Shown piece after piece: positions 1,178-37,866 of a DNA stretch of 48,436 nt; position 1 is the first letter of the stretch, and each line of letters begins with the position of its first letter. A model generated the notes under the pieces. The model did no database searches, was not told the origin of the DNA, and saw only the letters and a program-made list of their open reading frames with translations. The position numbers and the translations under genes are program-made. Location of the stretch: assembly GCA_049967195.1 (NCBI GenBank), contig JBMFTE010000003.1, positions 1 to 48,436 on the forward strand. Direction: 5' to 3'. The stretch comes from Nitrososphaeria archaeon (lineage in GTDB: Archaea; Thermoproteota; Nitrososphaeria; Conexivisphaerales; UBA164).

Positions 1178-2470
1178 TCATTTTTCAGTATTGGAAATTG
1201 TTCCCACATTGGATTTGCTCCTCCCCTCCCTCTCGATCGCGTACAGGAATATGCCAAACATTATGGTCACCGACCCCACATAAAGGGCCTGAAGCCCAAG
1301 GGCGATCATTATTAACACTGATAGCAGAATTGAAACAACCTGGACATACGGGTAGAGGGGTGAGTTGAACGGTCCCCTTATTCCCCTTTTCCTCACTATA
1401 TATACCGCCAGGCCCGTTAGGGCGTAGGAGAATATTACACCAAAGTTAGAAGCCAGAGCTATGTACTGTATGTTCCCCAGGAAGATAGATGCCATTGCAA
1501 TGGCGCCAACAAGCAGCACTGCTCTTTTCGGAGAATCTTCCTTTCCGCCGAGAACCCTAGGAAGGAGGCCGTCCTCGCTCATCTGTAGCAGTGTCCTGGA
1601 GCCGGCCACTATCAGGGACAGCGTAACCGTAACGGTTGCGACAAGCGCCACTATGCCTATTATCTGGTCAACAAATAACGGTGCCCTGGAAAATGACAGC
1701 GCATTTAGGAGGGGGTCAGCCGTCACGGTGTACAGCTTCCAAGGCATCAGGGCTAGCATTCCGACCACTACAAGTATGTACAGGATCGTGCTGACAGCAA
1801 GCGAAAGCATTATCGCTCTTGGTGCATTCCTTTTACCGTCCCTGATTTCCGGTGTGAGAGTCGCTACAGTGTTAAATCCAGAGTATGCGAAAAACGCAAG
1901 GGAGGCAGATTCCACTATGCTGAACGGCCCGTTCGGGAAAAAAGGCGTGAACCTTGCAGGCACCCATCTGCCATAGATAACCGAGACGGCTATAAATATG
2001 ATCAGCCCTCCAGTCGTCAGGACCACAAGTAGCTCCTCCAGCTCTGCCACAACCCTTACACCAACGTAGTTAAGGGCCACGGCGAAGGCCATTAACACAA
2101 GCGCAAGCCCAAGCTCATACGTAAGTGACTGGAACCCGATGAGGGTCAGGAGGTATGATGAAAATCCAAGGGCCACGGCGGAAGTTGCTATAGCATACGA
2201 TATTGCCCTGAGCCATCCCACTATGAACCCCGTAGATTCCCCCATGGTTTCCTTTACAAAGGAGTACAACCCGCCGTGTGCCACTATTTTTGAAGAAAGC
2301 TCCGCGCTGTTCAGGGCGACTGTGATGGCAAGCACGGCTGTAAGAATAAAGGAAAACAGGGCGCCGGGCCCCGCCTGATAGATCACAGAACCGGCCAGCA
2401 CAAATATGCCGGCGCCTATTATGTTGCCTATGCCTATGGCTGTTGCCTGCCACATGCTGATTTTTTCCAA
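1178..2470 (-). CDS. APC-family amino acid permease
   Basis: GNIIGAGIF (TM1) and FFAYSGF (TM6) motifs; about 12 hydrophobic segments. Confidence 0.92.
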   Translation of the reverse strand: MEKISMWQATAIGIGNIIGAGIFVLAGSVIYQAGPGALFSFILTAVLAITVALNSAELSSKIVAHGGLYSFVKETMGESTGFIVGWLRAISYAIATSAVALGFSSYLLTLIGFQSLTYELGLALVLMAFAVALNYVGVRVVAELEELLVVLTTGGLIIFIAVSVIYGRWVPARFTPFFPNGPFSIVESASLAFFAYSGFNTVATLTPEIRDGKRNAPRAIMLSLAVSTILYILVVVGMLALMPWKLYTVTADPLLNALSFSRAPLFVDQIIGIVALVATVTVTLSLIVAGSRTLLQMSEDGLLPRVLGGKEDSPKRAVLLVGAIAMASIFLGNIQYIALASNFGVIFSYALTGLAVYIVRKRGIRGPFNSPLYPYVQVVSILLSVLIMIALGLQALYVGSVTIMFGIFLYAIEREGRSKSNVGTISNTEK

Positions 2471-3860: not shown

Positions 3861-4691
3861 TTAACCGTGATAGTCGGGCAACCCCCTCAGGTTCATCTCG
3901 AGAAATTCCCTGAAGTAATCGCTCCTTGGAATGTCCCTGTACCGTTCCATTGAAAGTATGTCGCGGAGTATCTGGTCGTCGCTAGCCCTGCAGCGGGTTT
4001 TTACGATGTCATTAAACTCCGTATAAGTTTTTGCAACTGTATCAAAAATTCCCGCCCCGGTGCAACCGAAGTGGGGAAAGCATACCCTTTCTGGGTTCAT
4101 TTTCCTCAATCTTTCAACTGATTGCAGGAACATTTTCATGTCAAACGGAGGCGGCGCCGCGGGCCATATGCTGTTGCCTATCAACATGCCCAGTGAATCC
4201 CCCGGAAACAGTACCCTCTCATTTTTCAGGTACCACGCTGAGCTGTGAGATGCGTGGCCGGGAGCAGCTATCAACTCCAGCTCATATTTGCCCACCCTTA
4301 TTGTGCTGTTGTCATTGAGCGCCATGACCCTGTCCGCGCCGACCGGCCTGACTTCGCCCCACACCCGGTATATGTCCCCCAGAGTCTTTGTCGAAGCCTC
4401 AATCAGCCTTGACGGGTCAACCAGATGCCTGGCACCCTTCTCATACACAGCTATCTTTATGCCAGGAAGTCTGCTTGCGAGCTTCCAGGCGCCCCCGCTG
4501 TGGTCAACGTGAACGTGTGAAACCAGCGCATAAGATATCCTGCCCGCTTCTATGTGCTCTGACGCCCTGCTGATATATTCCTCTGTTACGCTGGAAGGAC
4601 CGGTCTCGACTATGGCGGCCTCGCCGTCAGAAACAATAAGGTAACCATTCAGTATCGGCACCGTGCCCATGGTTCCAAGGTTCAATATCAT
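3861..4691 (-). CDS. MBL-fold metallo-hydrolase
   Basis: HVHVDH motif, PGH, GD and C-terminal FPHFG. Confidence 0.9.
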   Translation of the reverse strand: MILNLGTMGTVPILNGYLIVSDGEAAIVETGPSSVTEEYISRASEHIEAGRISYALVSHVHVDHSGGAWKLASRLPGIKIAVYEKGARHLVDPSRLIEASTKTLGDIYRVWGEVRPVGADRVMALNDNSTIRVGKYELELIAAPGHASHSSAWYLKNERVLFPGDSLGMLIGNSIWPAAPPPFDMKMFLQSVERLRKMNPERVCFPHFGCTGAGIFDTVAKTYTEFNDIVKTRCRASDDQILRDILSMERYRDIPRSDYFREFLEMNLRGLPDYHG

Positions 4692-4768: not shown

Positions 4769-5917
4769 ATGACGGTATATGTAGTTTCCGCAGTAAGGAC
4801 CCCCTTGGGGAAGCTCGGGGGTACTTTAAGGGGCCTGAGCGCTGTTGATATGGGATCCACGGTAATAGGCGAGGCAGTCAAAAGGTCAAAAATACCTGAG
4901 CGGGAAATAGGGATGGTAATAATGGGAAACGTGCTGAGGGCAGGCCATGGGCAGGATATTTCAAGGCAATGCGCAATTAGGGCAGGCCTGCCAAATGCTG
5001 TTGATGCGTACAGCATTGACATGGTGTGTGCCAGCGGAATGATGAGCATCATAAGTGCGGCCCAGATGATCATGACAGGGGATGCGCACGCTGTTGTGGC
5101 AGGAGGCACTGAAAGCATGAGCCAGGCTGAATTCACAGCTGCCCTTAGGGCTGGCGTGAGTACCGGTTCGGAAATCGCAATGAAGGATACAATGTTCGCC
5201 GACGGCCTGAGGGATCCATTCACCATGAAACTCATGGGGGAGGAGGCCGACATGGTAGCTAAGGAGCACGGGGCTCCCCGGGAGGAACTTGACCGCATTT
5301 CATATGAAAGCCATGTAAGGGCAGCAAGGGCTGCCGATTCAGGCAAATTCGATAAGGAGATCGTGCCGGTGCCGGGCCCAGTAACCAGGGACGAAGGGAT
5401 AAGGAGGGATACATCAATTGAAAAGCTGACAGGACTAAAGCCCGCTTTTGGAGGATTACACACTGCAGGTAGCTCCTCACAGATATCTGACGGCGCGGCA
5501 GCGCTTGTGCTTGCCGACGAAGCAACCGTCAAAGAGGCCGGCGTAAAGCCAATCGCAGTTATAAGGGGGTACAGCTGGGCTGGGGTTGAAAGTTACAGGT
5601 TCGCTGAGGCACCGGTGCCTGCCGTAAGGAAGCTGCTTGCCCGCATAGGTATGAAAATCAGCGAAATTGACTACTTTGAAAACAATGAAGCCTTTGCCGT
5701 AAGCAGTTACATATTTATGAAAGAGTTTGGAATCCCTGAGGAGAGGCTGAACCCCTGGGGCGGCGCGATTGCACTGGGGCACCCCATCGGAGCAAGCGGG
5801 GCAAGGATAGCCGTCACAATGCTAAACTATATGAAAGAATTGCGCGCAGGTACAGGCATTGCAAGCCTTTGCCACGGCATAGGGGGGGCAACCGCTGTGG
5901 CATTTGAGATGGTGTAG
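4769..5917 (+). CDS. Acetyl-CoA C-acetyltransferase (thiolase)
   Basis: VCASG (catalytic Cys), NEAF, GHPIGASG and LCHGIGG. Confidence 0.95.
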   Translation: MTVYVVSAVRTPLGKLGGTLRGLSAVDMGSTVIGEAVKRSKIPEREIGMVIMGNVLRAGHGQDISRQCAIRAGLPNAVDAYSIDMVCASGMMSIISAAQMIMTGDAHAVVAGGTESMSQAEFTAALRAGVSTGSEIAMKDTMFADGLRDPFTMKLMGEEADMVAKEHGAPREELDRISYESHVRAARAADSGKFDKEIVPVPGPVTRDEGIRRDTSIEKLTGLKPAFGGLHTAGSSSQISDGAAALVLADEATVKEAGVKPIAVIRGYSWAGVESYRFAEAPVPAVRKLLARIGMKISEIDYFENNEAFAVSSYIFMKEFGIPEERLNPWGGAIALGHPIGASGARIAVTMLNYMKELRAGTGIASLCHGIGGATAVAFEMV

Positions 5918-5922
5918 AATTC

Positions 5923-6008
5923 CATGCCGGCTGGGCCTTACAGCAGTATGATTGATGGATGATAAATGCGTCAACACTGTCCCATATATGCTGCATAATA
6001 CTGGCGTG
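5923..6008 (+). other. Long imperfect stem-loop filling the intergenic space between convergent genes
   Basis: Three nested helices: 5923-5930/6001-6008, 5941-5950/5983-5993 and 5952-5957/5969-5974. Their G.U pairs work only on the + strand. Confidence 0.4.
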
Positions 6009-6012
6009 AATT

Positions 6013-6612
6013 TTATATTTTTGTTATATTGAGTGGTTTTCTTGGCTTTAATTCTGGCATCTCGTCGGGCTTTCCAAGAGCCAGCATGCCTACATATTCC
6101 GTCCTGCCGGGCAGCCCAAGGGCAGCTTTTAGTTCCTCGTCGTGGAACTGAGGCACAGCAATGTACACTGTACCATAGCCCTTCGACCATGCAAGGAGCA
6201 TCATGTTTCCTAAAGCCAGAGCCACGCTTTCGATTCCCCACATCCTCTCATATTCCATGTACTCATCGTTAAGTGTCCTGGTGCTATAATCAAGGAGGCC
6301 GATTATGTACGCCGGCGCGTCGTAAATTCCCTTGGCAAACATTTCCTCCCATTTGCTGATCTCGTTTTTGTCGGGAGTTCTTCTCAATACTCTTGAAAGA
6401 TACGTCATCTGACCCTTTTTTATAAAGGAAAGTATTTTCTCCCTGTTTTCCCTGCTTGTAACTGATATGAAGCGCCACTGTTCGCCCCCGCCGGCTGTAG
6501 GCGCCCGTATGCCAGCTGATACGATTTCCCTTATATCTTCGTCCGGCACGGGGTCCTTCTTGAACCACCTGATGCTTCTCCTAGAAAAAATTATCTCGCT
6601 CAGGTCAGCCAT
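6013..6612 (-). CDS. Nitroreductase family protein
   Basis: RRSIRWF, APTAGGGEQWRF and NMMLLAWSKGYGT; likely start ATG 6612. Confidence 0.9.
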   Translation of the reverse strand: MADLSEIIFSRRSIRWFKKDPVPDEDIREIVSAGIRAPTAGGGEQWRFISVTSRENREKILSFIKKGQMTYLSRVLRRTPDKNEISKWEEMFAKGIYDAPAYIIGLLDYSTRTLNDEYMEYERMWGIESVALALGNMMLLAWSKGYGTVYIAVPQFHDEELKAALGLPGRTEYVGMLALGKPDEMPELKPRKPLNITKI

Positions 6613-6708
6613 AATGTTTCTGTGTACCAATTCACTTATAAAAATTATGCTTCAATAACAAACAAAAATTTAATATATTATAAAGTTACATTTAACTATT
6701 GACTAAAA

Positions 6709-7911
6709 TTGTTCCCATTTGGAGATATTAACGATTTTAAGATTGACATGGACCAAGAGCACGAACTGTTCAGGAAGTCAATAAGGCAGTTCTGCGAAGA
6801 GAAACTGACGCCGATAATTATGGAAGTTGAACGGACGAATGACATTCCACGGGGAGTGATTGAAGATGCAAAAAACCTCGGCCTTACAGGCATAGGCATA
6901 CCGCAGAAATATGGGGGGCAGGGGGGCGACATGAGGATGATGGTGATAATGTCCGAAGAGATTTCGAGGGTTCTCCCCTCGTTCGGCACAATGTTGCTGG
7001 TGAACCACCTTTTTGTGGACCCTCTAATTATTTTTGGCACCGAAGAACAGAAATCAAAGTACGTTGTGCCTGTGGCCACGGGGAAGGCGCTGGCAGCTCA
7101 TGCCAGCACTGAACCCGGAGCCGGAAGCGATGTGGCCGGCATAAGCACAGCCGCCAGAAAGGTTGAATCAGGGTGGGTGCTTAACGGCCGTAAGGCATTC
7201 ATAACAAACGCCGACAGGGCTGACTTTTTCATAGCCTCGGCTAGGACGTCTCCTGTAAATCCGCAGTCCCGGTGGAGGGGGCTTTCGACATTTATTGTGG
7301 AAAAAGGGTTCAGTGGGGTAGAAATAGGGCACAAGTTTGACGTGATTGGACTGAGGGGTGAACAGCCAAATGAAGTCATTTTCAACGATGCTGCCGTGCC
7401 GGAAGCCAACCTTGTGGGTAAGCCTGACGAGGGATTTAAGGTTGTAGTTACAACCTACGATTACTCCCGGATACTCATAGCAGCTCAGGCAGTAGGCATT
7501 GCACAGGCAGCTTTTGAAATGGCGTTCAATTACTCAACCCAGAGGAAGGCATTTGAAAAGCCACTGGCTTCTTTCGAAGGCATCGCTTTCAAGATATCTG
7601 ACATGCTGATGGAGCTCGAGGCCTCCAGGCTTTTGACTTACTGGGCAGCCTACCTCGCAGACTCCAAGAGGCCGGAGTTTTACATGGCATCGTCTATAGC
7701 CAAAACGTATTCCACAGAAACGGCCGAAAAGATGGCATCACTTGCAATAAAGATACACGGCGGTGCCGGCGTGGACCGCGAAACTGGCGTTGAAAGGCTT
7801 CTCAGGGATTCGGTGATAACCACGATATATGAAGGGGCTAATGACATACAGAGGCTGACCGTGTTCAGGAGCCTGCTCAAAATGGTTTCAAAGAACCTAG
7901 AGGTGTCCTAG
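6709..7911 (+). CDS. Acyl-CoA dehydrogenase (canonical homomeric type)
   Basis: All FAD and catalytic motifs are present: TEPGAGSD, LNGRKAFIT, RKAF, IHGGAG and IYEGA. Confidence 0.95.
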   Translation: MFPFGDINDFKIDMDQEHELFRKSIRQFCEEKLTPIIMEVERTNDIPRGVIEDAKNLGLTGIGIPQKYGGQGGDMRMMVIMSEEISRVLPSFGTMLLVNHLFVDPLIIFGTEEQKSKYVVPVATGKALAAHASTEPGAGSDVAGISTAARKVESGWVLNGRKAFITNADRADFFIASARTSPVNPQSRWRGLSTFIVEKGFSGVEIGHKFDVIGLRGEQPNEVIFNDAAVPEANLVGKPDEGFKVVVTTYDYSRILIAAQAVGIAQAAFEMAFNYSTQRKAFEKPLASFEGIAFKISDMLMELEASRLLTYWAAYLADSKRPEFYMASSIAKTYSTETAEKMASLAIKIHGGAGVDRETGVERLLRDSVITTIYEGANDIQRLTVFRSLLKMVSKNLEVS

Positions 7912-9063
7912 GTGAAGGCTGTGGTAATAGGGGCCGGCACCATGGGGCACGGGATAGCCCAGCTTGCGGCGGTGGCTGGCTATGACGTAACCCTAAACGA
8001 CGTTTCAGATGAGCTGTTGAACAGGGCTGTTGAAAAAATAAGGTGGAGCCTCAGTAAGATGAGCGAAAGCGGAAGGCTGAAGGAAAGCGTGGATTCTGTA
8101 ATGTCCAGGCTGAACACGGACAAGTCACTTGAAAATGCGCTGAAGGCCACTTCGGTGATGTTTGAAGCCGTGCCGGAAGTGCTTGACCTGAAGCTCAAAT
8201 TGTTCAGGATTGCAGGCACGGTTGCCCCGAATAACTCGATGCTCGCCACAAATACAAGCAGCATACCGGTATCTGAGATCGCGAAGGTAGTGCCAAATCC
8301 TGAACGGGTGATTGGAATGCACTTCTTTAACCCGCCCCAGCTCATGCCCCTTGTGGAGATTGTTAAGGGCCAGAAGACATCCGACAGCTGCGTTAAGGCT
8401 GCCACTGATATTTCAAAGCGGTTCGGAAAGGAACCCGTGCTGGTCAGCAGGGATGTACCCGGGTTTATCGTAAACAGGGTCCTTGCAAGGCTCCTGAATA
8501 CATCTTGCGCGATGGTGGCTCACGGGGCAGCCACGGTCGAATCGGTGGATTCAGCTCTAAAGTACAGGCTTGGTTTCCCGATGGGGGCCTTTGAGCTTGC
8601 TGACTACAGTGGCATTGACGTATTTTATCTCGTATTCCGGGCCATCAAAGAAAGGGGATTCAAAATGCATGAATGTCCCCTATTTGAGGAAAAGTACAGG
8701 AGGGGAGAACTCGGGTTCAAGACGGGTTCGGGTTTTTACCGATACCCCGAGGCCGGGAAATACCACCGGGCAAGCATTAGCCGCGAGGCCGGGGCCGGGG
8801 TTGACATAACCATGCTTGTCGCCCCTGCGGTCAATGAAGCTATCTGGCTGATCAGGGAGGGCGTATCTGTGCCCCAGGACATCGACAGGGCAACAAAGCT
8901 TGGTCTTGGATACCCTCAGGGAATCCTTGAAATAGGAAGCAAGATTGGAATGCAAAACGTGATGCGCGCACTCATCACCTTGCGCGAACTGACTTCATGG
9001 GACGAGTACGAGCCTGATACGCTGCTGCAGGAAATCGTGCTTAGCGGCACAAAGCTCATCTAA
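7912..9063 (+). CDS. 3-hydroxyacyl-CoA (3-hydroxybutyryl-CoA) dehydrogenase
   Basis: GAGTMG, TNTSS, GMHFFNP and PGFIVNR; duplicated C-terminal domain; starts directly after the ACAD stop. Confidence 0.93.
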   Translation: MKAVVIGAGTMGHGIAQLAAVAGYDVTLNDVSDELLNRAVEKIRWSLSKMSESGRLKESVDSVMSRLNTDKSLENALKATSVMFEAVPEVLDLKLKLFRIAGTVAPNNSMLATNTSSIPVSEIAKVVPNPERVIGMHFFNPPQLMPLVEIVKGQKTSDSCVKAATDISKRFGKEPVLVSRDVPGFIVNRVLARLLNTSCAMVAHGAATVESVDSALKYRLGFPMGAFELADYSGIDVFYLVFRAIKERGFKMHECPLFEEKYRRGELGFKTGSGFYRYPEAGKYHRASISREAGAGVDITMLVAPAVNEAIWLIREGVSVPQDIDRATKLGLGYPQGILEIGSKIGMQNVMRALITLRELTSWDEYEPDTLLQEIVLSGTKLI

Positions 9064-9620
9064 AATTCAATGCCCTTTCTTGCAGCCAGACCCGCCATAT
9101 ATGGGTGCTTTATTTCCCTCATCTCTGTCACAAGGTCCGCCGCATCAATCATCGCCTGAGTGGCATAACGACCGGTGATCACAAGCTCCACGCCACGCGG
9201 CCTTTCTTTCAGCAGTTTCAGCACTTCCTTTTCCCCTATGAGCCCCATGTGCACAGCAGTGGCAAGCTCGTCCAGCACCAGCACATCAAATTTGCCGGAA
9301 ACAAGGGCCCTGCCGGCCCACTTTAAGCCTTTCATGACCATTGCGACATAATCAGCCGGCGGCTTGCCTGGCTCATAAATCACCACCGAAGGTCCCGTGA
9401 TGTTTTTGTCTGTGGTTATAAAGTAGTTCATGCCATAGAACCGTTCAGTTATGTTGCTATGCCTTTTCAGTATTCTTGATTCGCCATAGCAGCCGACTTT
9501 CATAAAATGCACAAGCGCGACCTTAAGGCCCCAGCCTGCTGCCCTTACTGAAAGCCCAACAGCGGCGGTGGTCTTGCCCTTTCCATTTCCAGTGTAAATT
9601 TCCACCAGACCAAGTTCCAT
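9060..9620 (-). CDS. cobA: Cob(I)alamin adenosyltransferase, CobA/BtuR type
   Basis: YTGNGKGKTTAA P-loop, LVLDE, VITGR, and KHPY...KGIEF. Confidence 0.93.
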   Translation of the reverse strand: MELGLVEIYTGNGKGKTTAAVGLSVRAAGWGLKVALVHFMKVGCYGESRILKRHSNITERFYGMNYFITTDKNITGPSVVIYEPGKPPADYVAMVMKGLKWAGRALVSGKFDVLVLDELATAVHMGLIGEKEVLKLLKERPRGVELVITGRYATQAMIDAADLVTEMREIKHPYMAGLAARKGIEF

Positions 9621-11249
9621 CTAGAATATCACCGGTTCCCTGTATTCACCCCAAACTTCTTTCATCGCACCCACTATCTCACCCAGCGTGGCCCCTGCTC
9701 TGGCCGCGCCTATTATATATGGCATGAGGTTCTCCTCCTGTGCTGCCTTCTGGACATGTTGCAGCTCCTGCCTCACCTTCTGTTCGTCCCTGCCCATCCT
9801 GTATGCCCTTAGCCGGCTCATCTGCCTCCTTTCGTACCTTTCCGACACTTTAAGGACGGGGATTTCCGCCTCCCCACCCTGGGCGTGCGCGTTGACCCCG
9901 ACTATGATGCGTTTCTTTTCCTCAACCTCCTTCTGGTATCTGTATGAAGATTCAGCTATTTCCCTCTGGAAAAAGCCACTGTTTATCCCCTTGACAACTC
10001 CCCCCATGCCATTTATCCTGTCCAGGTAGTCATAGGCTTCCTCCTCCATTTTGTCGGTGAGCCACTCCAGATAATAGCTCCCGCCTGCGGGGTCAACAGT
10101 GTCAGGAAGGCCGGATTCCTCCGCTATTATCTGCTGCGTCCTGAGGGCTATGGTGGCCGCAAGCTCGGTCGGGAGGGCCCATGCCTCATCCAGGGCATTT
10201 GTGTGTAGGCTCTGGGTCCCACCGAGCACGGCTGCCATTGCTTCGATTGCTGTCCTCACGATGTTGTTTTCAGGCTGCTGCGCCGTCAGGCTCACCCCAG
10301 AAGTCTGTGTATGGAACCTCAACCACATCGACCTTTCCTTTTTCGGGTTGTACCTGCTCTTAATTTCCCTTGCCCAGATCCTCCTTGCGGCCCTGAACTT
10401 AGCTACCTCTTCGAAGAAGTAAATTGAGCTGTCAAAGAAGAAGCTCAGCCTGGGCGCAAAATCGTCTATGTCAAGCCCCCTCCTGACCGCCTCATCAGTG
10501 TACGTGAACCCGTCGGCGAGGGTGAAAGCAAGCTCCTGGACGGCAGTTGCGCCGGCTTCCCTTATATGATAGCCGCTTATGCTTATCGGGTTCCACTGTG
10601 GGAGTGCTTTTGAGCTGTACTCGATCGTGTCCACCACGAGCTTGAGCGATGGTTCCGGCGGAAATATGTACGATTTCTGTGCCATGTACTCCTTGAGTAT
10701 ATCGTTCTGGATGGTGCCCCGCAGATCAGCCGGTGGAACCCCCTGGTGCTCTGCCGCAAGAATATAAAATGCCCATATAACGGCCGCGGGCCCGTTGATC
10801 GTCATTGATGTTGAAACAGTTCCAAGCGGTATGTCCTGGAACATGAGCTCCATGTCCTCAAGGGTGCTTATACCAACCCCTGCCCTTCCAAACTCACCCC
10901 TTGAAAGCTCATCATCAGAATCCAGGCCAAGCAGAGTCGGGTAGTCGAAAGCTATGCTCAGCCCGGTTTCGCCCTGCTGTAGCAGGTACTTTAACCTCCT
11001 GTTGGTTTCAATTGCGTCCCCGTACCCTGAGAATTCTCTAATTGTCCATAACCTTTTCCGGTACATTTCCTCATGTATGCCCCTAGTGAACGGGTATCTG
11101 CCGGGGAATCCCAGCCTCTCCATGTAGCTTCCCTTTACGTCAAGAGGCGTGTAAAGAACCTTGACCGGGATGCCGGACCTTGTTGATCTTTCATTTTCGC
11201 CCCTCCTTCCCCTTTCCCAGGATTTCAGGGCTTTCCTGATACCGCTCAT
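9621..11249 (-). CDS. icmA: B12-dependent acyl-CoA mutase large subunit, isobutyryl-CoA mutase type
   Basis: Mutase barrel motifs YPFTRG, GTIQNDILKE, SISGYH and QSLHTN. The specificity positions are Phe73 and Gln191 (MCM has Tyr and Arg). Confidence 0.85.
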   Translation of the reverse strand: MSGIRKALKSWERGRRGENERSTRSGIPVKVLYTPLDVKGSYMERLGFPGRYPFTRGIHEEMYRKRLWTIREFSGYGDAIETNRRLKYLLQQGETGLSIAFDYPTLLGLDSDDELSRGEFGRAGVGISTLEDMELMFQDIPLGTVSTSMTINGPAAVIWAFYILAAEHQGVPPADLRGTIQNDILKEYMAQKSYIFPPEPSLKLVVDTIEYSSKALPQWNPISISGYHIREAGATAVQELAFTLADGFTYTDEAVRRGLDIDDFAPRLSFFFDSSIYFFEEVAKFRAARRIWAREIKSRYNPKKERSMWLRFHTQTSGVSLTAQQPENNIVRTAIEAMAAVLGGTQSLHTNALDEAWALPTELAATIALRTQQIIAEESGLPDTVDPAGGSYYLEWLTDKMEEEAYDYLDRINGMGGVVKGINSGFFQREIAESSYRYQKEVEEKKRIIVGVNAHAQGGEAEIPVLKVSERYERRQMSRLRAYRMGRDEQKVRQELQHVQKAAQEENLMPYIIGAARAGATLGEIVGAMKEVWGEYREPVIF

Positions 11250-12130
11250 TTGTCCAGCTCACCAGCAGCCTGGGAAATGATTTCCCCGATGCCCCTGCCT
11301 GACAGCAGCTCGTTTACCATCACGTCAAAGTCCCTGCTTGCAAGGTACCTGTCAAGCCTATATTCAAGACGATGACGCACAAGCTGCTTAAGCCTTGACC
11401 GGATCCTTTCCTGCCTGCTCCTGCCGTTCTTCTGCAGGTGCCTCTCGATTGCTGATGCCAGCGCGGCAATCCCCTCCCCCCTGGTGGCAACCGCCTTTAT
11501 GACCTCAGGCAGGCGGCCCGGCATTCCCAGCTCAAGTAGCTCCCTGGCCTTCTCATCGGCTGGGCCAGTGTCGGCCTTGTTTACGACAAAAATGTCCGCC
11601 ACCTCCATGATGCCCGCCTTGATCGCCTGTATTTCATCACCAAGATTCGGAACCGTGACCATAACCACTGTATCGGCTATGCTGTGTATGTCGGTTTCAT
11701 CCTGCCCTGCGCCAACGGTTTCTACAAATATTTTTTCATAGCCCGCTGCATCAAGGGCATTTATCAGGTCGATTGTAAAGTATCCCAGCCCCCCCTTTTT
11801 TCCACCAGTTGGCACGCTTCTTATAAATGCTCGGCCCTGTCTGCCAAGTTCAGGCATCCTTACCCTGTCCCCCAGAAGCGAGCCACCTGAAAGGGGGCTG
11901 GAAGGGTCAATGCACAGGACCCCGACCTTCTGGCCGGCCTTTATCATTTCCATTGCCAGCCCGGATATTACGGTTGATTTTCCGCTACCTGGAAAGCCAG
12001 TTATGCCGACAACAAACGAGCCGTGTATCATGCCAAGCAGGCTTTCACTTATTTTATCATTGCCAAGCTCGATTTCCGTCATTACCCTAGCAAGGGCTCT
12101 CCTGTCACCAGAAAGGGCGCGTTCTATCAT
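11246..12130 (-). CDS. meaB: MeaB/ArgK-family GTPase chaperone of the B12 mutase
   Basis: GFPGSGKS, DPSSPLSGGSLLGDRVRM, ETVGAGQ and NKAD; ATGA overlaps with both neighbours. Confidence 0.93.
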   Translation of the reverse strand: MIERALSGDRRALARVMTEIELGNDKISESLLGMIHGSFVVGITGFPGSGKSTVISGLAMEMIKAGQKVGVLCIDPSSPLSGGSLLGDRVRMPELGRQGRAFIRSVPTGGKKGGLGYFTIDLINALDAAGYEKIFVETVGAGQDETDIHSIADTVVMVTVPNLGDEIQAIKAGIMEVADIFVVNKADTGPADEKARELLELGMPGRLPEVIKAVATRGEGIAALASAIERHLQKNGRSRQERIRSRLKQLVRHRLEYRLDRYLASRDFDVMVNELLSGRGIGEIISQAAGELDK

Positions 12131-12534
12131 TTTAGCCTCCTGCACCTGCTCATTATAAAGCGGGATATTTCGTCAATGCTCGAGCCTGGTCCAAATACTG
12201 CGCTAACGCCGATCTTCACAAGCCTTGGCTTGTCTGATTCAGGTATTATGCCGCCCCCTATCAGCAGCACATCGTCAATTTTGTTCTGCTTCATCAGACG
12301 AGCTACCCTCCTGAACTGGTACATGTGGGCCCCGGACAGTACGCTCAATCCGATCACGTCCGCGTCCTCTTCTATTGCGGCCCTGACGATGTCCTCAGGT
12401 GTCTGCCTGATCCCGGTGTATATGACGTCAAATCCCCTTTCCATCAAGGACCTGGCGAGCACTTTTGCCCCACGGTCATGCCCGTCCAGACCCGGCTTGG
12501 CGATTATGACCCTGATCCTCCTTTCGCCACTCAT
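12127..12534 (-). CDS. icmB: Cobalamin-binding small subunit of the acyl-CoA mutase
   Basis: DGHDRG base-off/His-on motif, GLSVLSG and GGGIIP. Confidence 0.9.
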   Translation of the reverse strand: MSGERRIRVIIAKPGLDGHDRGAKVLARSLMERGFDVIYTGIRQTPEDIVRAAIEEDADVIGLSVLSGAHMYQFRRVARLMKQNKIDDVLLIGGGIIPESDKPRLVKIGVSAVFGPGSSIDEISRFIMSRCRRLK

Positions 12535-12652
12535 AATATTGATATTTTCCAGAAGAGTTTAATAAATATTTAATTGTTGCATGAAATTTTATGAAAATTA
12601 ATTGCAGCTTAAGCGATTAACATCTAAATTATTATATGGGTTATTGCAGATA

Positions 12653-14704
12653 ATGCCCATGGATGACATGCTAAAGCGCCTTTATGAGCCTTCGACAATT
12701 GCAGTTGTTGGTCCTTCACCAAATAGCAACAATTTGGCAACGGTTATCCTGAGCAACCTGCTTTCAGCAAGCAGGGAAGGCAGGCTCAGCGCAGGCATTT
12801 ACGCCGTAAACCCGCTCTATGAGGAATGCCTTGGCCTGAAATGCAAAAAAGGACTGGAAGAGGGCACGGACTTGGCAATAATTGCCGTCCCCACAAGGCT
12901 TGCCGAAGATTACCTGCTGCAGGCCCAGAATGCTAGCACCAGTGTCGCGATCGTCATATCAGGCGGTTTCAGCGAAAGCGGAGGTAAATCTCTCAGGAAT
13001 GTTGTGCACGGAACGAGGGTGCTTGGTCCGAACACGATAGGCGTTGTAGACCCTTACAGCGGCATAAACACGCTGTTCCTCCCGAATTACAAGGCAGCCT
13101 CTGACGGCGCCAGCCTTAGGTCAATACCGGACCCTGTGAAAGGACGCGTCGCAATAATTGCCCAGAGCGGGGGGATCAGTATTTCACTCTATGACGAACT
13201 GCTGAGTTCAGGAATCGGCATCAGGTCACTTACATGCCTCGGAAATTCCGACGACATAGATGCCGCAGAAATCGTGGAATATTTTTCTGAAGACGGCCTG
13301 ACGGACCTGATCGCCCTCTACCTGGAGGGGGTTCAGGATGGGAGGAAACTCATGGACGCAATATCAAGGGCCGCAGTTAAAAAGAAGGTAGTTGCCATAA
13401 TCGCAGGCTTAAGCGAAGCCGGGAAAAGGGCCACGTCTTCCCATACCGCTTCAATCGTCAGCAACTCAGATGTTTACCTCGCAGCGATAAAGCAGGCCGG
13501 GGCGCTTCCAGTAAGGGATTTTAGAGATTTCATTGCGCTTATTAAGGCGTACCAGATGATCGGTACAGTAAAAGGAAGGGGGGTTGCCGTGCTGACAAAC
13601 AGCGGAGGTGCTGGCGTGCTTGGCGCTGATGAGGCGTCGCTCAGCGGAATGGATGTACCCCCCCTGCACGACAGGCTTGCCGGGTTAAGGGAAAAGGGGG
13701 TGCTGCCGGGAATAGCAAGCGTAGAAAACCCGGTAGATGTAAGCGCATCCGGCGACGACAGGAGCATTGAAGCCGTCTATGAAAGCCTTATGAAATTTGA
13801 CGACATAAACTCCGTCGTGCTGGTGAGCACCCACTACCCTCCAGGCATAACCGACATGCTGCCTTCCAAGATAGCCGGCATTTACCGCAAATCCGGAAAA
13901 CCTACCGTGGCCGTGGAGCTCGGGAGGTCCCCGTGGTCTAACCGCATCAGGGAAATCTACGATGCGAATGGCATACCTTCCGTGGATTCGCCCCAGCAGG
14001 CTGCGCGCATTCTTGCGTTACTTTGCAGGCTAAACGAAATTGAGCCTGCATGGAATCCTGAAATGGGGCACAGCGGAACTACTCTTGCAGCTGGGGTGCA
14101 CATGGAGCCCGAGCTTACGGACATCGTTGGTGCATTCGGCTTTAAAACCCCTCAGTGGACATGGGTGGAAAGCGAGGACGGCCTGCTCAAAGTCAGGTAC
14201 CCTGCTGCCCTGAAGGTTTTTTCAGGCAACCTGATGCACAAAACTGAAGCGGGGGCTGTAAGGGTAAACGTGCGCAGGGAGGATGCTATGACAACATTCA
14301 AGGAACTCCACAGAGCTTTCCCAGATGGAAGGGTTTATGCGCAGGAAATGGTCAGTGGCGTTGAGATCAGGGTTGGTGTAGCCAGCGACAGTGCCTTTGG
14401 GAAGTATATTGACATTGGGGCAGGTGGAGTCCTGACGGAGCTTTTGAGGGACCACAGCACAAGGATAGCCCCGGTTACTCCAAGCGAGGCTTCGAAGATG
14501 CTTGAGGAACTAAAAATGGCTCCTCTCCTTAGGGGGTACAGGGGAGGGGTGGCCGCGGACCTGGCATCGCTTGCAGATTCAATTTCGTCTCTTTCAGCGT
14601 GGGCAGCATCACTTAAAGGGCTCAGGGAAATGGAGATCAACCCGCTGATCGTAAACAGGACCGGCTCCTACGCCGTTGATGTACGTGCAACAGTCGAACC
14701 ATGA
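12653..14704 (+). CDS. ADP-forming acyl-CoA synthetase, fused alpha-beta
   Basis: GPNTIG, QSGG, SHT (phospho-His), NSGG, NPVD, and ATP-grasp motifs HKTEAG and EINPL. Confidence 0.9.
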   Translation: MPMDDMLKRLYEPSTIAVVGPSPNSNNLATVILSNLLSASREGRLSAGIYAVNPLYEECLGLKCKKGLEEGTDLAIIAVPTRLAEDYLLQAQNASTSVAIVISGGFSESGGKSLRNVVHGTRVLGPNTIGVVDPYSGINTLFLPNYKAASDGASLRSIPDPVKGRVAIIAQSGGISISLYDELLSSGIGIRSLTCLGNSDDIDAAEIVEYFSEDGLTDLIALYLEGVQDGRKLMDAISRAAVKKKVVAIIAGLSEAGKRATSSHTASIVSNSDVYLAAIKQAGALPVRDFRDFIALIKAYQMIGTVKGRGVAVLTNSGGAGVLGADEASLSGMDVPPLHDRLAGLREKGVLPGIASVENPVDVSASGDDRSIEAVYESLMKFDDINSVVLVSTHYPPGITDMLPSKIAGIYRKSGKPTVAVELGRSPWSNRIREIYDANGIPSVDSPQQAARILALLCRLNEIEPAWNPEMGHSGTTLAAGVHMEPELTDIVGAFGFKTPQWTWVESEDGLLKVRYPAALKVFSGNLMHKTEAGAVRVNVRREDAMTTFKELHRAFPDGRVYAQEMVSGVEIRVGVASDSAFGKYIDIGAGGVLTELLRDHSTRIAPVTPSEASKMLEELKMAPLLRGYRGGVAADLASLADSISSLSAWAASLKGLREMEINPLIVNRTGSYAVDVRATVEP

Positions 14705-14909
14705 TATGCATAAAAAAATTAAATTAAATCCCATTTTTTACCCATAATTTGTTTTACTGCGATTTTTGACTAAAGCTTCAAATCCGGGGGAAAATAATAT
14801 ACTTAAATTTTTATAAGGAATTAACAGATAAATTGTAATTTATATAAATATTTTCTAAAAAAATTTATAAAAATGTATAAATATTGCCTAAAACATATAA
14901 AACCTAGCA

Positions 14910-15173
14910 ATGTATCGCCCAGTTTTAAGGCAAAAGTGGAACGTGATCATCGACGCCGACAGATGCAAGGGATGCGAAATATGCGTGAACGCCTGCCCTG
15001 AACAGAACCTTCAGCTTTCAAAGAGTATCAACGGCCTGGGCTACCATTATGTCGAATTTAGCTTTCACGGCAAAAGGGGCGACTGCACTGGCTGCAATAT
15101 ATGTTACAAAGTGTGCCCGGATTATTCAATCCTCGGGGTGGTTTCAGGTGAAGAGGCTGCTAATGGGAGCTGA
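14910..15173 (+). CDS. 2x[4Fe-4S] ferredoxin, delta subunit of 2-oxoacid:ferredoxin oxidoreductase
   Basis: CKGCEICVNACP and CTGCNICYKVCP; first gene of the oxidoreductase operon. Confidence 0.9.
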   Translation: MYRPVLRQKWNVIIDADRCKGCEICVNACPEQNLQLSKSINGLGYHYVEFSFHGKRGDCTGCNICYKVCPDYSILGVVSGEEAANGS

Positions 15174-16185
15174 AGCGATAGCAGAAGCGGCAGTTGACGC
15201 CGGTCTTGAAGCTTATTTTGGATATCCGATAACCCCCAGCAGCGAAATTATGGAGAACCTTGCGCTTCTACATGCCAGCCACAGAAGCGATAAATTCAAG
15301 GTTTATTTCCAGTCGGCAAGCGAGGTTGAATCGATTAACCTGCTAATGGGCGCCGGTGCTGCAGGCCATATTGCCATGACAGCGACTTCAGGCCCGGGAT
15401 TAAGCCTTATGGCGGAGGGCATTTCGTATGCCTACACTTCGGAAATCCCCCTGGTAATAGTTAATGTTAACCGGGGCGGCCCCGGGCTTGGAAATGTGGC
15501 ACCGGAGCAGAGCGATTACCTCTTTGTGACTAAATCCCTAGGACATGGCGGCAGCAAGGCCATAGTGCTTGCGCCCAGCTCAATTCAGGAGGCCATGAAC
15601 CAGGTCCAGATGGCCTTTGAGCTAAGTTTCAAGTTCAGGATGCCCGTGATAATTTTAACCGATGCGATAATAATACACATGCTGGAGAGCGTTGATCAGG
15701 ACCATCTGCTTCCCGTAAGCGTGGACTCAGGCTGGAGTGCGAGGGGGAGGAACGGCGGGGAGAGGCACCTGATAAACAGCATTTACCTTGAACCGGCCGA
15801 ATTCAGGGAAATAAAGGTTAAGCTGGAGGAAAAGTGGAAGACCGTTGAACCCTTGGGCGAGTGTTTTATGTGCGAGGACGCGGAAACCCTGTTTGTGGCA
15901 TACGGTATAAGTGCCAGAATAGCAATGGAAGCAGCAGCAGAACTGAGGGATAGGGGGATAAGGGCTGGCGTTTTCAGGCCAATAACGCTAAATCCATTTC
16001 CAGGGAAGATGCTCATGAATGCAGCCAGAAACAGCGACAGGATAATCGCCATTGAGATGAATGAGGGGCAGATGGTGCATGATGTGCAGTACTGGATTAG
16101 AAGGGATGTGGAGCTTGTCCCGTTCATGGGTGGAATTTATCCTGACACCGAGGAGGTGATAGAAAAGTGCAAGCAAAGCAGCTGA
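15148..16185 (+). CDS. 2-oxoacid:ferredoxin oxidoreductase alpha subunit (VorB-like, 2-ketoisovalerate type)
   Basis: GYPITPSSE, TATSGPG, RGGPGLGN..PEQSDY, GHG and EMNEGQM; probable GTG start 15148. Confidence 0.88.
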   Translation: MKRLLMGAEAIAEAAVDAGLEAYFGYPITPSSEIMENLALLHASHRSDKFKVYFQSASEVESINLLMGAGAAGHIAMTATSGPGLSLMAEGISYAYTSEIPLVIVNVNRGGPGLGNVAPEQSDYLFVTKSLGHGGSKAIVLAPSSIQEAMNQVQMAFELSFKFRMPVIILTDAIIIHMLESVDQDHLLPVSVDSGWSARGRNGGERHLINSIYLEPAEFREIKVKLEEKWKTVEPLGECFMCEDAETLFVAYGISARIAMEAAAELRDRGIRAGVFRPITLNPFPGKMLMNAARNSDRIIAIEMNEGQMVHDVQYWIRRDVELVPFMGGIYPDTEEVIEKCKQSS

Positions 16186-16955
16186 GCGCTGTTTTCCCTG
16201 GGGCTGTAAATTCATATTGCCCTGGCTGCGAGCACGGCCTTTTGTTAAAGTTCATTGCCATGGCGCTAGAGGAGCTTGGAATAACTGAAAAGGCGGTAAT
16301 GGTTGGATCTGTTGGATGCTCTACCCTCGCATTTAAGTTTCTCAACGTTGATTATGTACAGGCGCCACACGGAAGGGCACCGGCCATAATGACCGGGATA
16401 AAGGAGGTGGAGCCCGGCGCAATAGTGTTTGCAGTTCAGGGAGACGGAGATGCCCTTTCAATAGGGCTTCAAGAGCTTATCCACGCCGCCAACAGGGGAA
16501 TCCCGGTTACAGTTTTTATGTACAACAACATGGTTTTCGGAATGACCGGGGGGCAGATGGCTCCAACCACTCCCGAGGGAATGGTCACAACTACCACCCC
16601 CTTCGGCAGGAACACTAAAACGAGCGGGCCACCGATTAACTCCTGCGAACTGCTTTCCTGCCTTTCCGGGCCATCATATATCAGGAGGGTTATCATAGCT
16701 CCGAAACCCGTCCAGCTGAAGGACAGGGTGATGTACTCCTCCAAGGAAGCCAATGAATCCTACAGGGCTATAGTTTCAGCGCTCAGGACCCAGATGATGG
16801 GAGGGTTTTCATATGTTGAATTTCTCGGAACATGTAACGTAAACTGGAAGATGAGTATAATCGATTCAAAAAAATATGCGCATGAGGTCAGCGCCAAAGT
16901 TTACCCGCCGCGGCTGTTCAGGGACAGGTTTGGAGTTGATTCAGTTGAAGGCTAG
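16167..16955 (+). CDS. 2-oxoacid:ferredoxin oxidoreductase beta (TPP-binding) subunit
   Basis: CPGCEHG, VGCS, HGRAPA and GDGD...NN..FGMTGGQ. Confidence 0.92.
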   Translation: MQAKQLSAVFPGAVNSYCPGCEHGLLLKFIAMALEELGITEKAVMVGSVGCSTLAFKFLNVDYVQAPHGRAPAIMTGIKEVEPGAIVFAVQGDGDALSIGLQELIHAANRGIPVTVFMYNNMVFGMTGGQMAPTTPEGMVTTTTPFGRNTKTSGPPINSCELLSCLSGPSYIRRVIIAPKPVQLKDRVMYSSKEANESYRAIVSALRTQMMGGFSYVEFLGTCNVNWKMSIIDSKKYAHEVSAKVYPPRLFRDRFGVDSVEG

Positions 16956-17526
16956 GATTATCATATCCGGAAGGGGAGGGCTTGGCGTGGTTGAAATGGG
17001 TAACATGCTTGCCTACCTATTTATGATTAGGGGGTTTTCCACAACCGTTGTTCCAACGTATGGTCCCCAGACGCGGGGGGGTTTTGTTGAAAGTGTCGTG
17101 GTAATACAGGACAAGCGCGTATTAAACCCTATCCCTACAAAGTTCGACGTGCTGATAGCCATGGACGTACCGGCACTTAACAGGATTAAGGACCTAATGC
17201 CTTACGGTACAATATTCTTCAATTCTTCCTTGGTCAACGGGGAGTGGCCCAACGCGGTATATATACCTGCAACTGAGATAGCAGAAAAGGTAGCCGGGAA
17301 TAAAATCAGGGAACCGCGCGTAACCTCAAACGCATCCATGCTTGGTGCCCTTTCAAAAATAATGCAGCTGAGTAAAGGCGACCTCAATGAAGCAATTTCA
17401 AACATATTAAGCGACAAGCCGAAACAGGCTATACAGCTCAACATAGACATAGCTGATGCAGGATACAACTATGCCGAAAGCGAATTGGAAAAAATAAAAA
17501 ATCCCCTGCCATTTTTAATCAAATAA
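16945..17526 (+). CDS. 2-oxoacid:ferredoxin oxidoreductase gamma subunit
   Basis: GRGGLG, YGPQTRGG and NASMLGA; TTG start downstream of GGAG (start uncertain). Confidence 0.88.
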   Translation: MKARIIISGRGGLGVVEMGNMLAYLFMIRGFSTTVVPTYGPQTRGGFVESVVVIQDKRVLNPIPTKFDVLIAMDVPALNRIKDLMPYGTIFFNSSLVNGEWPNAVYIPATEIAEKVAGNKIREPRVTSNASMLGALSKIMQLSKGDLNEAISNILSDKPKQAIQLNIDIADAGYNYAESELEKIKNPLPFLIK

Positions 17527-19536: not shown

Positions 19537-19944
19537 ATGGAAGTTGGCGTGCTAAAGGAAATTATTGAAAATGACCCCTTCCTGAAGCTGCTAGGCATCA
19601 GGGTAGAAAAAATACAGGCTGGGTCATGCAAGCTTGTACTGAACTACAGGAGTGACCTCACAAGGTTTGGCAACATCCTGAACGGTGGTGTCACGGCAAC
19701 CCTAGCTGATGCGGCAGGCGGGTGCGCCGCCCTATCATATAACCTTAGCAAAAACGAAGTTACCGTTGACCTGGACGTTTCATATTTGAGGCCAATCTCT
19801 GAAGGCCCTGTTGTGGCAGAATCATCAATTGTAAAAAGCGGGGAAAGCCTTACGTTCACGATCACAAACATATATGACGGGAAGGGAAACCTGTGCGCCG
19901 TGGCAAAGGGAACGTACTTTTATCTTGATGAATTCAATATTTAG
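19537..19944 (+). CDS. PaaI-family hotdog thioesterase
   Basis: PFLKLLGI, NGGVTATLAD and VTVDLDVSYLRP. Confidence 0.88.
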   Translation: MEVGVLKEIIENDPFLKLLGIRVEKIQAGSCKLVLNYRSDLTRFGNILNGGVTATLADAAGGCAALSYNLSKNEVTVDLDVSYLRPISEGPVVAESSIVKSGESLTFTITNIYDGKGNLCAVAKGTYFYLDEFNI

Positions 19945-22106: not shown

Positions 22107-22108
22107 GC

Positions 22109-27373: not shown

Positions 27374-27404
27374 AAATTTAATTTGCGCCGCGATGTTATA
27401 AACT

Positions 27405-32634: not shown

Positions 32635-32703
32635 GATAATATGTTAATATATTTTAATAAATAAACATTTTCTGTTCAATAACTTGACAATATCAGTTGA
32701 ATA

Positions 32704-32720
32704 TTTATAATAATTATAAA
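32704..32720. promoter_or_regulatory. 8-1-8 palindrome in the divergent P5CDH/PRODH promoter
   Basis: TTTATAAT-A-ATTATAAA; either TATA-like elements on both strands or an operator. Confidence 0.35.
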
Positions 32721-32760
32721 AGATAAAATGTTTTTATCCAAGAAATTGCTATATAGTGTC

Positions 32761-37855: not shown

Positions 37856-37866
37856 CTTGAACCACC

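Follow-up and report, generated by a model that had tools for sequence, protein, structure and literature searches.

In Streptomyces, isobutyryl-CoA mutase (ICM) links valine-derived isobutyryl-CoA and butyryl-CoA; in archaea, methylmalonyl-CoA mutase (MCM) has a role in the 3-hydroxypropionate/4-hydroxybutyrate (3HP/4HB) cycle, and the usual view of archaeal peptide fermenters is that they go no further than branched-chain acids. The two-subunit Streptomyces ICM is cited in PMC2847961 and PMC7238569, and ICM was 'only known from bacteria' according to the former, a 2010 review. In Syntrophothermus lipocalidus TGB-C1, the ICM cluster Slip_0757-0760 serves a route from isobutyrate to butyrate and on into beta-oxidation (PMC5017805). 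The fused bacterial enzyme IcmF is widely misannotated as MCM (PMC7764203). For archaea we found one mention, at the level of annotation: a Cuniculiplasma proteome lists an 'isobutyryl-CoA mutase subunit B' (PMC7285479). Here we describe a 48,436-nt contig of a Nitrososphaeria archaeon (JBMFTE010000003.1 of assembly GCA_049967195.1; this whole stretch is what we call the window), in which a four-gene operon at 12534-9060 is predicted, with good support, to encode a two-subunit adenosylcobalamin-dependent isobutyryl-CoA/n-butyryl-CoA mutase with its own adenosyltransferase, and not an MCM. The route that we propose around it is not new biochemistry, being established in bacteria (Syntrophothermus, Streptomyces); what would be new is an archaeal version fronted by a 2-oxoacid:ferredoxin oxidoreductase (OFOR). 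A first-pass annotation of this DNA knew of no characterisation of the route in archaea, and our literature search likewise found no archaeal ICM characterisation or pathway proposal; Fig. S2 of PMC5017805, on ICM clusters of 'other prokaryotes', may include archaea.

Scanning the window's open reading frames (ORFs) with Pfam and NCBIfam profiles placed within 4769-17526 every gene that the first-pass annotation had put into these approximately 13 kb, that is, a thiolase, an acyl-CoA dehydrogenase (ACAD), a 3-hydroxybutyryl-CoA dehydrogenase (HBD), the icmB-meaB-icmA-cobA genes, an ADP-forming acyl-CoA synthetase (ACD) and four OFOR genes:

4769..5917, plus strand: acetoacetyl-CoA-type thiolase THL1 (Thiolase_N/C; TIGR01930 415 bits, over cut-off)
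6013..6630, minus strand: nitroreductase-family gene, between the thiolase and ACAD1
6709..7911, plus strand: short-chain (butyryl-CoA-type) acyl-CoA dehydrogenase ACAD1 (Pfam ACAD N/M/C)
7912..9063, plus strand: HBD (3HCDH_N 203 bits, 3HCDH 145 bits), on the same strand as ACAD1 and abutting it
9060..9620, minus strand: ATP:cob(I)alamin adenosyltransferase, CobA/CobO type (PF02572 185 bits)
9621..11249, minus strand: acyl-CoA mutase large subunit, ICM-type (PF01642 723 bits over 542 aa; Phe73, Ala100, Gln191, Tyr227-His228)
11246..12145, minus strand: MeaB G-protein chaperone (TIGR00750 265 bits, over the cut-off of 240.75)
12127..12534, minus strand: B12-binding small subunit, 135 aa (PF02310; TIGR00640 159 bits; DGHDRG, a DxHxxG motif)
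12535..12601, no strand: divergent AT-rich spacer of 67 bp between mutase operon and ACD (sequence compared with L040-L042)
12602..14704, plus strand: fused ACD (CoA_binding_2 + Succ_CoA_lig + ATP-grasp_5)
14910..15173, plus strand: OFOR delta, 2x[4Fe-4S] ferredoxin-like (Fer4 families)
15049..16185, plus strand: OFOR alpha, VorB-subfamily-like (NF005507 379.2 bits)
16167..16955, plus strand: OFOR beta, thiamine pyrophosphate-binding (TPP_enzyme_C; NF008820 130.6 bits, under cut-off)
16876..17526, plus strand: OFOR gamma (PF01558 96.5 bits)

The operon has the same four-gene make-up as the ICM operon of S. lipocalidus, a likeness at the level of operon description, and the proposed route likewise ends in two acetyl-CoA (PMC5017805). 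Unlike that bacterial syntroph, which starts from free isobutyrate, the present organism is an archaeon whose operon is flanked by a ferredoxin-dependent OFOR and an ADP-forming ligase. The two-subunit architecture of ICM is found here, with a large subunit that has no fused B12 domain and a separate small B12 subunit carrying DGHDRG; the characterised IcmA/IcmB of Streptomyces cinnamonensis shares both this architecture and the Phe/Gln pair described below. In Streptomyces, isobutyryl-CoA comes from a lipoamide-type branched-chain 2-oxoacid dehydrogenase and goes to polyketide precursors, whereas here no E1 component of such a dehydrogenase (E1_dh) was found in the assembly (1.19 Mb in 132 contigs, 89% complete, every absence from it being provisional). 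The fused ICM-MeaB protein IcmF (PDB 4xc6) has a homologous substrate domain (285 bits) and shares with the present system a MeaB function linked to the mutase; unlike in IcmF, three separate genes here encode the chaperone, the B12 domain and the substrate domain, and the IcmF model NF045497 gave 349 bits against a cut-off of 1500.

Alignments to solved structures place Phe73 and Gln191 of the window mutase at the columns that hold Tyr and Arg in human and M. tuberculosis MCM: the MCM motifs WTIRQ-Y and FMV-R-NTY read WTIRE-F (Phe73) and YMA-Q-KSY (Gln191). We take Phe and Gln at these sites to be the mark of ICM. The P. shermanii entry 5req, unlike the other entries of that species, also shows Phe at the first site; 5req is the Y89F mutant, in keeping with Tyr89 as the residue of that column. 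The two sites are credited to Jost et al. as specificity determinants in this mutase family, with Tyr and Arg marking MCM (PMC7238569); at these carboxylate-binding sites the window protein carries Phe73 and Gln191 in place of the MCM pair.

The same residues recur well beyond the window. The 120 database homologues that score best (identity 61-100%; including Thermoplasmata-, Aciduliprofundum-, Baldrarchaeia- and WOR-3-labelled records) all have Phe, Ala and Gln at the positions of Phe73, Ala100 and Gln191 (F/A/Q); the closest named ones belong to metagenome-assembled genomes (MAGs) labelled Conexivisphaerales, Nitrososphaeria or Thaumarchaeota (80-89% identity), and every named close homologue is annotated as methylmalonyl-CoA mutase or, generically, as an acyl-CoA mutase family protein. 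Of 301 genomes sampled in the class of the window's archaeon, 267 gave a mutase match. The loci of the class's lineages other than ammonia-oxidising archaea (AOA), in families that we label f1, f2, f3, f5, f6, f9 and f13, were F/A/Q in 31 of 31 cases, and the complete ammonia-oxidiser-like genomes sampled were Y/A/R in six of six. The 3HP/4HB cycle of ammonia oxidisers depends on a true MCM. When we built a FastTree tree of 132 rows (126 distinct genes, six of them entered twice) with both signature columns removed, all 28 rows with Tyr/Arg (Y/R) fell on one side of a single split (support 0.952) with zero Phe/Gln (F/Q) rows among them, and the window mutase fell in the F/Q clade. Genomes of families f2 and f9 carry two mutases, the full-length second copy being Y/A/R in six of six cases, and F/Q and Y/R mutases are therefore paralogues kept side by side.

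Methylmalonyl-CoA epimerase (TIGR03081) follows the same division. Families with only F/Q copies in the loci read have few or none (0 of 16 in f1, the window's own family, leaving the present genome aside; 0 of 8 in f3; 1 of 14 in f5), families with both mutase types have it in 7 of 9 (f2) and 2 of 2 genomes (f9), and families with Y/R in the sampled genomes in 177 of 181 (f7, counting three unpublished ones, G131, G230 and G282), 9 of 9 (f11) and 38 of 39 (f12). The window mutase is like the MCM of ammonia oxidisers and other archaea in its split architecture, its nearby MeaB and its 53-57% identity to them. It is unlike the ammonia-oxidiser enzyme in having Phe/Gln against Tyr/Arg and in belonging to a separate clade; the ammonia-oxidiser enzyme is also accompanied by an epimerase, in places adjacent, as in genome G024, where the Y/R mutase ends at 514113 and the epimerase starts at 514120, so that the two abut. 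In G058 the epimerase shares a contig with the Y/R copy. Our own assembly has one mutase, that of the window, and its searches gave no match to the MCM pathway partners, the epimerase TIGR03081 and the propionyl-CoA carboxyltransferase PF01039; a separate true MCM plus epimerase, which the first-pass annotation had proposed to look for, is thus not found in it. The same holds for mmsA/mmsB, with no equivalog over cut-off in the assembly (methylmalonate-semialdehyde dehydrogenase, best 254 vs 448.5; 3-hydroxyisobutyrate dehydrogenase, best 200 vs 291.6). The earlier assignment of the mutase to the ICM type is borne out by its signature, by a clade apart from the Y/R enzymes, by genomes that keep F/Q and Y/R paralogues together and by the company that the epimerase keeps with Y/R copies.

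The f1 mutases share a clade of 13 (support 1.0; the window, L040-L047, L083, P0012, P0021 and P0035) with sequences labelled Thermoplasmatota or Aciduliprofundum, and not with the mutases of the same-order families f2 and f3, which suggests lateral transfer of the f1-type mutase in either direction.

A functional tie between F/Q mutases and beta-oxidation of C4 acyl-CoA in many lineages is supported by gene neighbourhoods. We compared the neighbours of the mutase at 80 species-representative loci from many phyla with the window proteins (blastp matches of E <= 1e-8 over half or more of the subject), counting as beta-oxidation families thiolase, HBD, ACAD, electron transfer flavoprotein (ETF) and crotonase (enoyl-CoA hydratase, ECH) within about 10 kb of the mutase. 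At least one such family was present at 26 of the 62 F/Q-only loci (at least two at 14, at least three at 11) and at none of the 16 Y/R-only loci, with both mutase types present at the remaining two; ammonia-oxidiser loci, likewise Y/R, had such a neighbour in 0 of 3 cases. The whole C4 set, ECH-HBD-thiolase-EtfAB-ACAD, surrounds a CobA-MutL-MeaB-MutS operon in archaeal loci L084 (Aenigmatarchaeota-labelled) and L087 (uncultured archaeon) and in metagenome contig L196. A second sample of 80 metagenome contigs was F/A/Q throughout (80 of 80).

The OFOR next to the operon has four subunits, delta, alpha, beta and gamma, and its alpha gene is one of five in the assembly, the other four belonging to a POR-type four-subunit enzyme (POR, pyruvate:ferredoxin oxidoreductase), a 2-oxoglutarate:ferredoxin oxidoreductase (KOR) type (PRK08659 475 bits, over cut-off) and two two-subunit enzymes, one of them over the archaeal OFOR cut-off. 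The window's alpha subunit scores highest on NF005507, the VorB subfamily model (under its cut-off of 399), ahead of PRK08659 (259 bits), which makes 2-oxoisovalerate a candidate substrate. A ferredoxin-dependent four-subunit OFOR beside an ADP-forming acyl-CoA synthetase is reminiscent of peptide fermentation by Thermococcales through 2-oxoisovalerate:ferredoxin oxidoreductase (VOR) and ACD; unlike theirs, the window's alpha subunit reaches only 81.5 bits on the Thermococcales VOR alpha model (cut-off 646) and groups with the VorB/KOR-like superfamily, and the mutase and beta-oxidation genes here offer a route past acid excretion. A VorB-type OFOR beside an F/Q mutase was seen in the window's genus and at the bacterial locus L152 (343 bits, the contig ending within alpha), where there are also genes for thiolase, HBD, ECH, three ACADs, CobA and MeaB, and a two-subunit OFOR lies beside the F/Q mutase in Thermoplasmatota-like L083 and L193.

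Immediately upstream of the Y/R MCM-MeaB operons of two other loci, L112 (Atribacterota-labelled) and L140 (Treponema-labelled), stand alpha-beta-gamma genes for a KOR-type OFOR, with KOR alphas of 585 and 557 bits (over cut-off) and KorB-like betas. These look like a module from 2-oxoglutarate through succinyl-CoA to methylmalonyl-CoA. That OFOR type follows mutase type where the two are adjacent is a pointer from two loci per class; by analogy, an OFOR feeding isobutyryl-CoA to ICM would make the same biochemical sense as a KOR feeding succinyl-CoA to MCM.

Taken together, the block could carry valine or isobutyrate through ICM into beta-oxidation. Valine would be transaminated to 2-oxoisovalerate (a class-IV, branched-chain-type aminotransferase is present in the assembly), which the VorB-like OFOR would turn into isobutyryl-CoA and reduced ferredoxin; free isobutyrate could enter as isobutyryl-CoA through the ADP-forming ligase, or the ACD beside the OFOR could instead convert acyl-CoA to ATP gain as in Thermococcales. 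ICM would then rearrange branched C4 isobutyryl-CoA to straight C4 butyryl-CoA, and ACAD1 would oxidise this to crotonyl-CoA with electrons passing to ETF and an HdrD-like protein. Judged by its scores against solved structures, ACAD1 appears nearest to short-chain acyl-CoA dehydrogenase (SCAD, 272-274 bits) and butyryl-CoA dehydrogenase (Bcd 5ol2, 269), and not to isobutyryl-CoA dehydrogenase (1rx0, 201; isovaleryl-CoA dehydrogenase, 191-223). The crotonase domain of the protein at 23296-25281 and then HBD would yield acetoacetyl-CoA, and the thiolase two acetyl-CoA. The hydratase had been assigned to 23296-25281 before, and this stands: the protein is an HBD-crotonase fusion, and tblastn of the assembly with the window proteins as queries gave no second crotonase domain.

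The block is conserved, though in its entirety only within the genus. The same gene order was found in three of the three other genomes of the genus (G069, G081, G071), as far as their contigs reach, and on metagenome contig L192 (80% mutase identity), which runs permease-DAO-MBL-thiolase-ACAD-HBD-CobA-mutase-MeaB-small subunit-ACD-OFOR and onward. Across the order it is the sub-modules OFOR-ACD-ACAD-HBD and ICM-adenosyltransferase-thiolase that are kept. In sister genus g2, all five loci join the small subunit-MeaB-mutase-CobA operon to thiolase THL1 and an MBL-fold gene (two of the contigs end early), with OFOR-ACD at a separate place, divergent from ACAD1-HBD; in genus g6, ACAD1-OFOR-ACD lies beside the second beta-oxidation set. 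OFOR alpha orthologues occur in 4 of 4 genomes of g1, 7 of 9 of g2, 1 of 1 of g3, 6 of 7 of g6, 0 of 9 of f2 and 0 of 3 of g4, the ACD adjoining this OFOR in g1, g2 and g6 and lying about 6 kb off in g3. The arrangement is not mere chance, because the block recurs in the genus and on L192 and its sub-modules in other genera. The full block exists at the level of the genus alone, where the ICM operon has been inserted into an older OFOR-ACD/ACAD-HBD module, with half of that module on either side. The synteny that the first-pass annotation had proposed to test thus splits: it fails for the whole cluster outside the genus, and it stands for the sub-modules and for F/Q-beta-oxidation neighbourhoods elsewhere. 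Separately, G006, a complete genome of the order, has a second VorB-like OFOR copy about 14 kb from its F/Q mutase (G006:C1:738904-739929 and 753743-755344), a loose linkage outside the window's genus.

We regard the whole reading, valine or isobutyrate through ICM into beta-oxidation, as probable, if with some reserve. It builds on gene content, the ICM-type signature, the clade, the phyletic pattern and synteny; from these we infer what the OFOR acts on, a catabolic direction and co-expression. As a pathway it is plausible, with recurrent synteny behind it instead of a single locus. Several points weigh against it. The ICM assignment hangs on the meaning given to Phe/Gln, and the tree, which holds no biochemically characterised ICM sequence, shows the split between F/Q and Y/R and nothing finer. 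Contig ends truncate many of the 80 loci compared, and genomes that are related do not count as independent observations; in the second sample only 17 of the 80 metagenome contigs, many of them short, had a beta-oxidation neighbour, and two had at least two families. The OFOR alpha stays under its NF005507 cut-off of 399, and neither a VOR structure nor a closely related characterised enzyme was linked to it. The immediate 4769-17526 block is without a crotonase. With mutase identities of 80-89% in the genus that keeps the full block, shared ancestry alone could explain the conservation. OFOR and mutase are not co-inherited either (mutase 9 of 9 and OFOR 0 of 9 in f2; OFOR 6 of 7 and mutase 2 of 7 in g6), and G010 of genus g6, 94% complete, has OFOR-ACD-ACAD1 together with no mutase match. 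Finally, IlvC and IlvD are present in the assembly, so that the valine skeleton is also made here and gene content does not settle the direction. Of the VOR-ICM-beta-oxidation proposal, the ICM-type mutase, the C4 context and the SCAD-like ACAD are supported; conservation of the full cluster stops at the genus, and OFOR and mutase do not strictly co-occur.

Another explanation, unlikely in our view, is that two independent modules are simply neighbours, OFOR-ACD-ACAD1-HBD working on other 2-oxoacids (for example isoleucine via 2-methylbutyryl-CoA to acetyl-CoA and propionyl-CoA, or plain ATP gain via ACD) and ICM on imported isobutyrate or butyrate. Genus g2 keeps OFOR-ACD/ACAD1-HBD apart from MutS-MeaB-MutL-CobA-THL1 at five of five loci, and since the OFOR-ACD-ACAD triad persists in G010 without a mutase match, ACAD1 may also take OFOR products directly. 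Set against this are the position of the ICM operon exactly between the module halves in all four genus genomes and L192, the independent appearance of other OFOR types beside F/Q mutases in Thermoplasmatota-like loci and of an OFOR in bacterial L152, and the SCAD-like character of ACAD1.

Reverse flux, from acetyl-CoA or butyryl-CoA to isobutyryl-CoA and then by reductive carboxylation to 2-oxoisovalerate for valine, or to isobutyrate with ATP gained via ACD, strikes us as less probable still. The ICM and OFOR reactions are reversible, and the thiolase is PhaA-like. The title of a paper on M. thermautotrophicus OFORs, cited in PMC7238569, terms those enzymes anabolic, and VorA/VorB of M. marburgensis are named in the same source. 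Against it, IlvC and IlvD make the classical valine route likely, ACAD/ETF systems of this kind normally oxidise, and the surroundings (permease, ETF, HdrD-like protein, proline dehydrogenase, aldehyde dehydrogenase) are catabolic.

It is very improbable that the F/Q mutase acts on another pair, such as isovaleryl-CoA/pivalyl-CoA, which IcmF also interconverts (PMC10481361), or 3-hydroxybutyryl-CoA/2-hydroxyisobutyryl-CoA. The 2-hydroxyisobutyryl-CoA mutase HcmA (PDB 4r3u) is the best solved-structure match of the window mutase (537 bits, ahead of human MCM with 484) and shares its Gln at the second site. At the first site HcmA has Ile, and it has Asp in place of the window's Ala100, two positions that we presume to define the 2-hydroxyisobutyryl-CoA mutases; as they are Phe73 and Ala100 here, we rejected this identity, and the recurring neighbours are C4 beta-oxidation enzymes. 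That the protein is an ordinary MCM, as databases name it and as its 637 bits on NF006944 (below the cut-off of 876) might suggest, is scarcely credible and was rejected given Phe73/Gln191 in place of Tyr/Arg, a clade apart from Y/R, Y/R paralogues coexisting in other genomes, no epimerase or carboxyltransferase in the assembly and no epimerase in 16 of 16 other f1 genomes.

The wider surroundings have the following other features:

1178..2470, minus strand: APC-family amino acid permease, BcaP-like (Pfam AA_permease 152 bits)
3861..4691, minus strand: metallo-beta-lactamase (MBL)-fold hydrolase (Pfam Lactamase_B 79.5 bits)
19934..23287, minus strand: second beta-oxidation set, two ACADs and thiolase THL2 (Pfam/NCBIfam scans)
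23296..25281, minus strand: HBD-crotonase fusion (3HCDH_N + ECH_1)
25752..29246, mixed strands: EtfB (plus), EtfA (minus) and HdrD-like FeS/CCG oxidoreductase (minus; Pfam scan)

Judged from their families, EtfB/EtfA and the HdrD-like protein would be the electron outlet for the ACADs. Every copy found in the assembly of thiolase (2), ACAD (3), HBD (2), crotonase (1) and the ETF pair (2) lies within 4769-39437 of the window (tblastn, the window's own proteins as queries); the three ACDs of the assembly are on three contigs. Further downstream are an AMP-forming acyl-CoA synthetase and an MFS transporter. The neighbourhood of the mutase block is catabolic, a compact catabolic island in a small genome. 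At 31012-33594 an aldehyde dehydrogenase is divergent from a proline dehydrogenase, a split PutA-like pair, and at 36009-39437 there is a second EtfAB with an ETF-QO/FixC-like flavoprotein. The permease, described earlier as lying just upstream, is indeed present and is not directly adjacent, as a DAO-family FAD oxidoreductase and the MBL-fold gene intervene; it scores 220.6 bits on NF053761 BcaP, far under the equivalog cut-off of 690. Homologues of the MBL-fold protein recur near F/Q mutase operons (L043-L047, L051-L057, L083, L084, L193), adjoining the thiolase/ICM operon in five of five g2 loci (41-47% identity); at loci that are Thermoplasmatota-like, labelled Aenigmatarchaeota or of family f5, their identity is 24-29%.

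A few details of the block itself remain to be given. The nitroreductase-family gene, which the first-pass annotation had passed over, has a homologue in L040 and no match in L192, where the thiolase comes directly after the ACAD; a BluB function was not accepted for it (77.6 bits vs a cut-off of 150). The CobA-type gene falls under the curated cut-offs (NF004637 161.1 vs 185; TIGR00708 144.6 vs 167.75). CobS was found (contig C82, L270) and CbiC was not in the 89%-complete assembly, in which a second CobA-like gene lies on contig C7; CobS without CbiC hints at corrinoid salvage instead of de novo synthesis, with which it is compatible. The ACD has all its membership domains (PF13380, PF13607, PF13549) in one 700-aa protein, and TATA-like runs in the spacer before it are kept within the genus, which we give as an observation only. 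For ACD, OFOR alpha and OFOR gamma, the start of the longest ORF probably lies too far upstream (12602-12680, 15049-15150 and 16876-16950): alignment to the families sets in at residues 24-35, and the ORFs of alpha and gamma each overlap the gene before them. The true ACD start is probably downstream of 12602, and that of OFOR alpha likely near 15151.

If the reasoning extends beyond this genus, most 'MCM' genes of heterotrophic archaea (non-ammonia-oxidising Nitrososphaeria, Thermoplasmatota, Aenigmatarchaeota- and Bathyarchaeota-labelled MAGs) would be ICMs, a ferredoxin-linked B12 route would fully oxidise the valine skeleton to two acetyl-CoA where isobutyrate would otherwise be excreted, and the OFOR would be matched to the mutase (VOR-like with ICM, KOR with MCM); we put this forward tentatively, as a little short of an even call. 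A 2024 survey lists 'mut, methylmalonyl-CoA mutase' among HP/HB-cycle carbon-fixation markers in non-AOA Nitrososphaeria (PMC10833072). If the wider reading is true, the use of 'mut' as a 3HP/4HB marker in these lineages would be a misreading. Carbon-fixation inferences based on it need re-checking in any case, because in the non-AOA families sampled here the gene is of the F/Q type and the epimerase is missing. Two residues, together with presence or absence of the epimerase, would give a simple and testable rule for sorting split archaeal acyl-CoA mutases. For the organism itself, an archaeon with a small genome, the mutase step would open complete oxidation of the valine skeleton by a minimal C4 beta-oxidation set.

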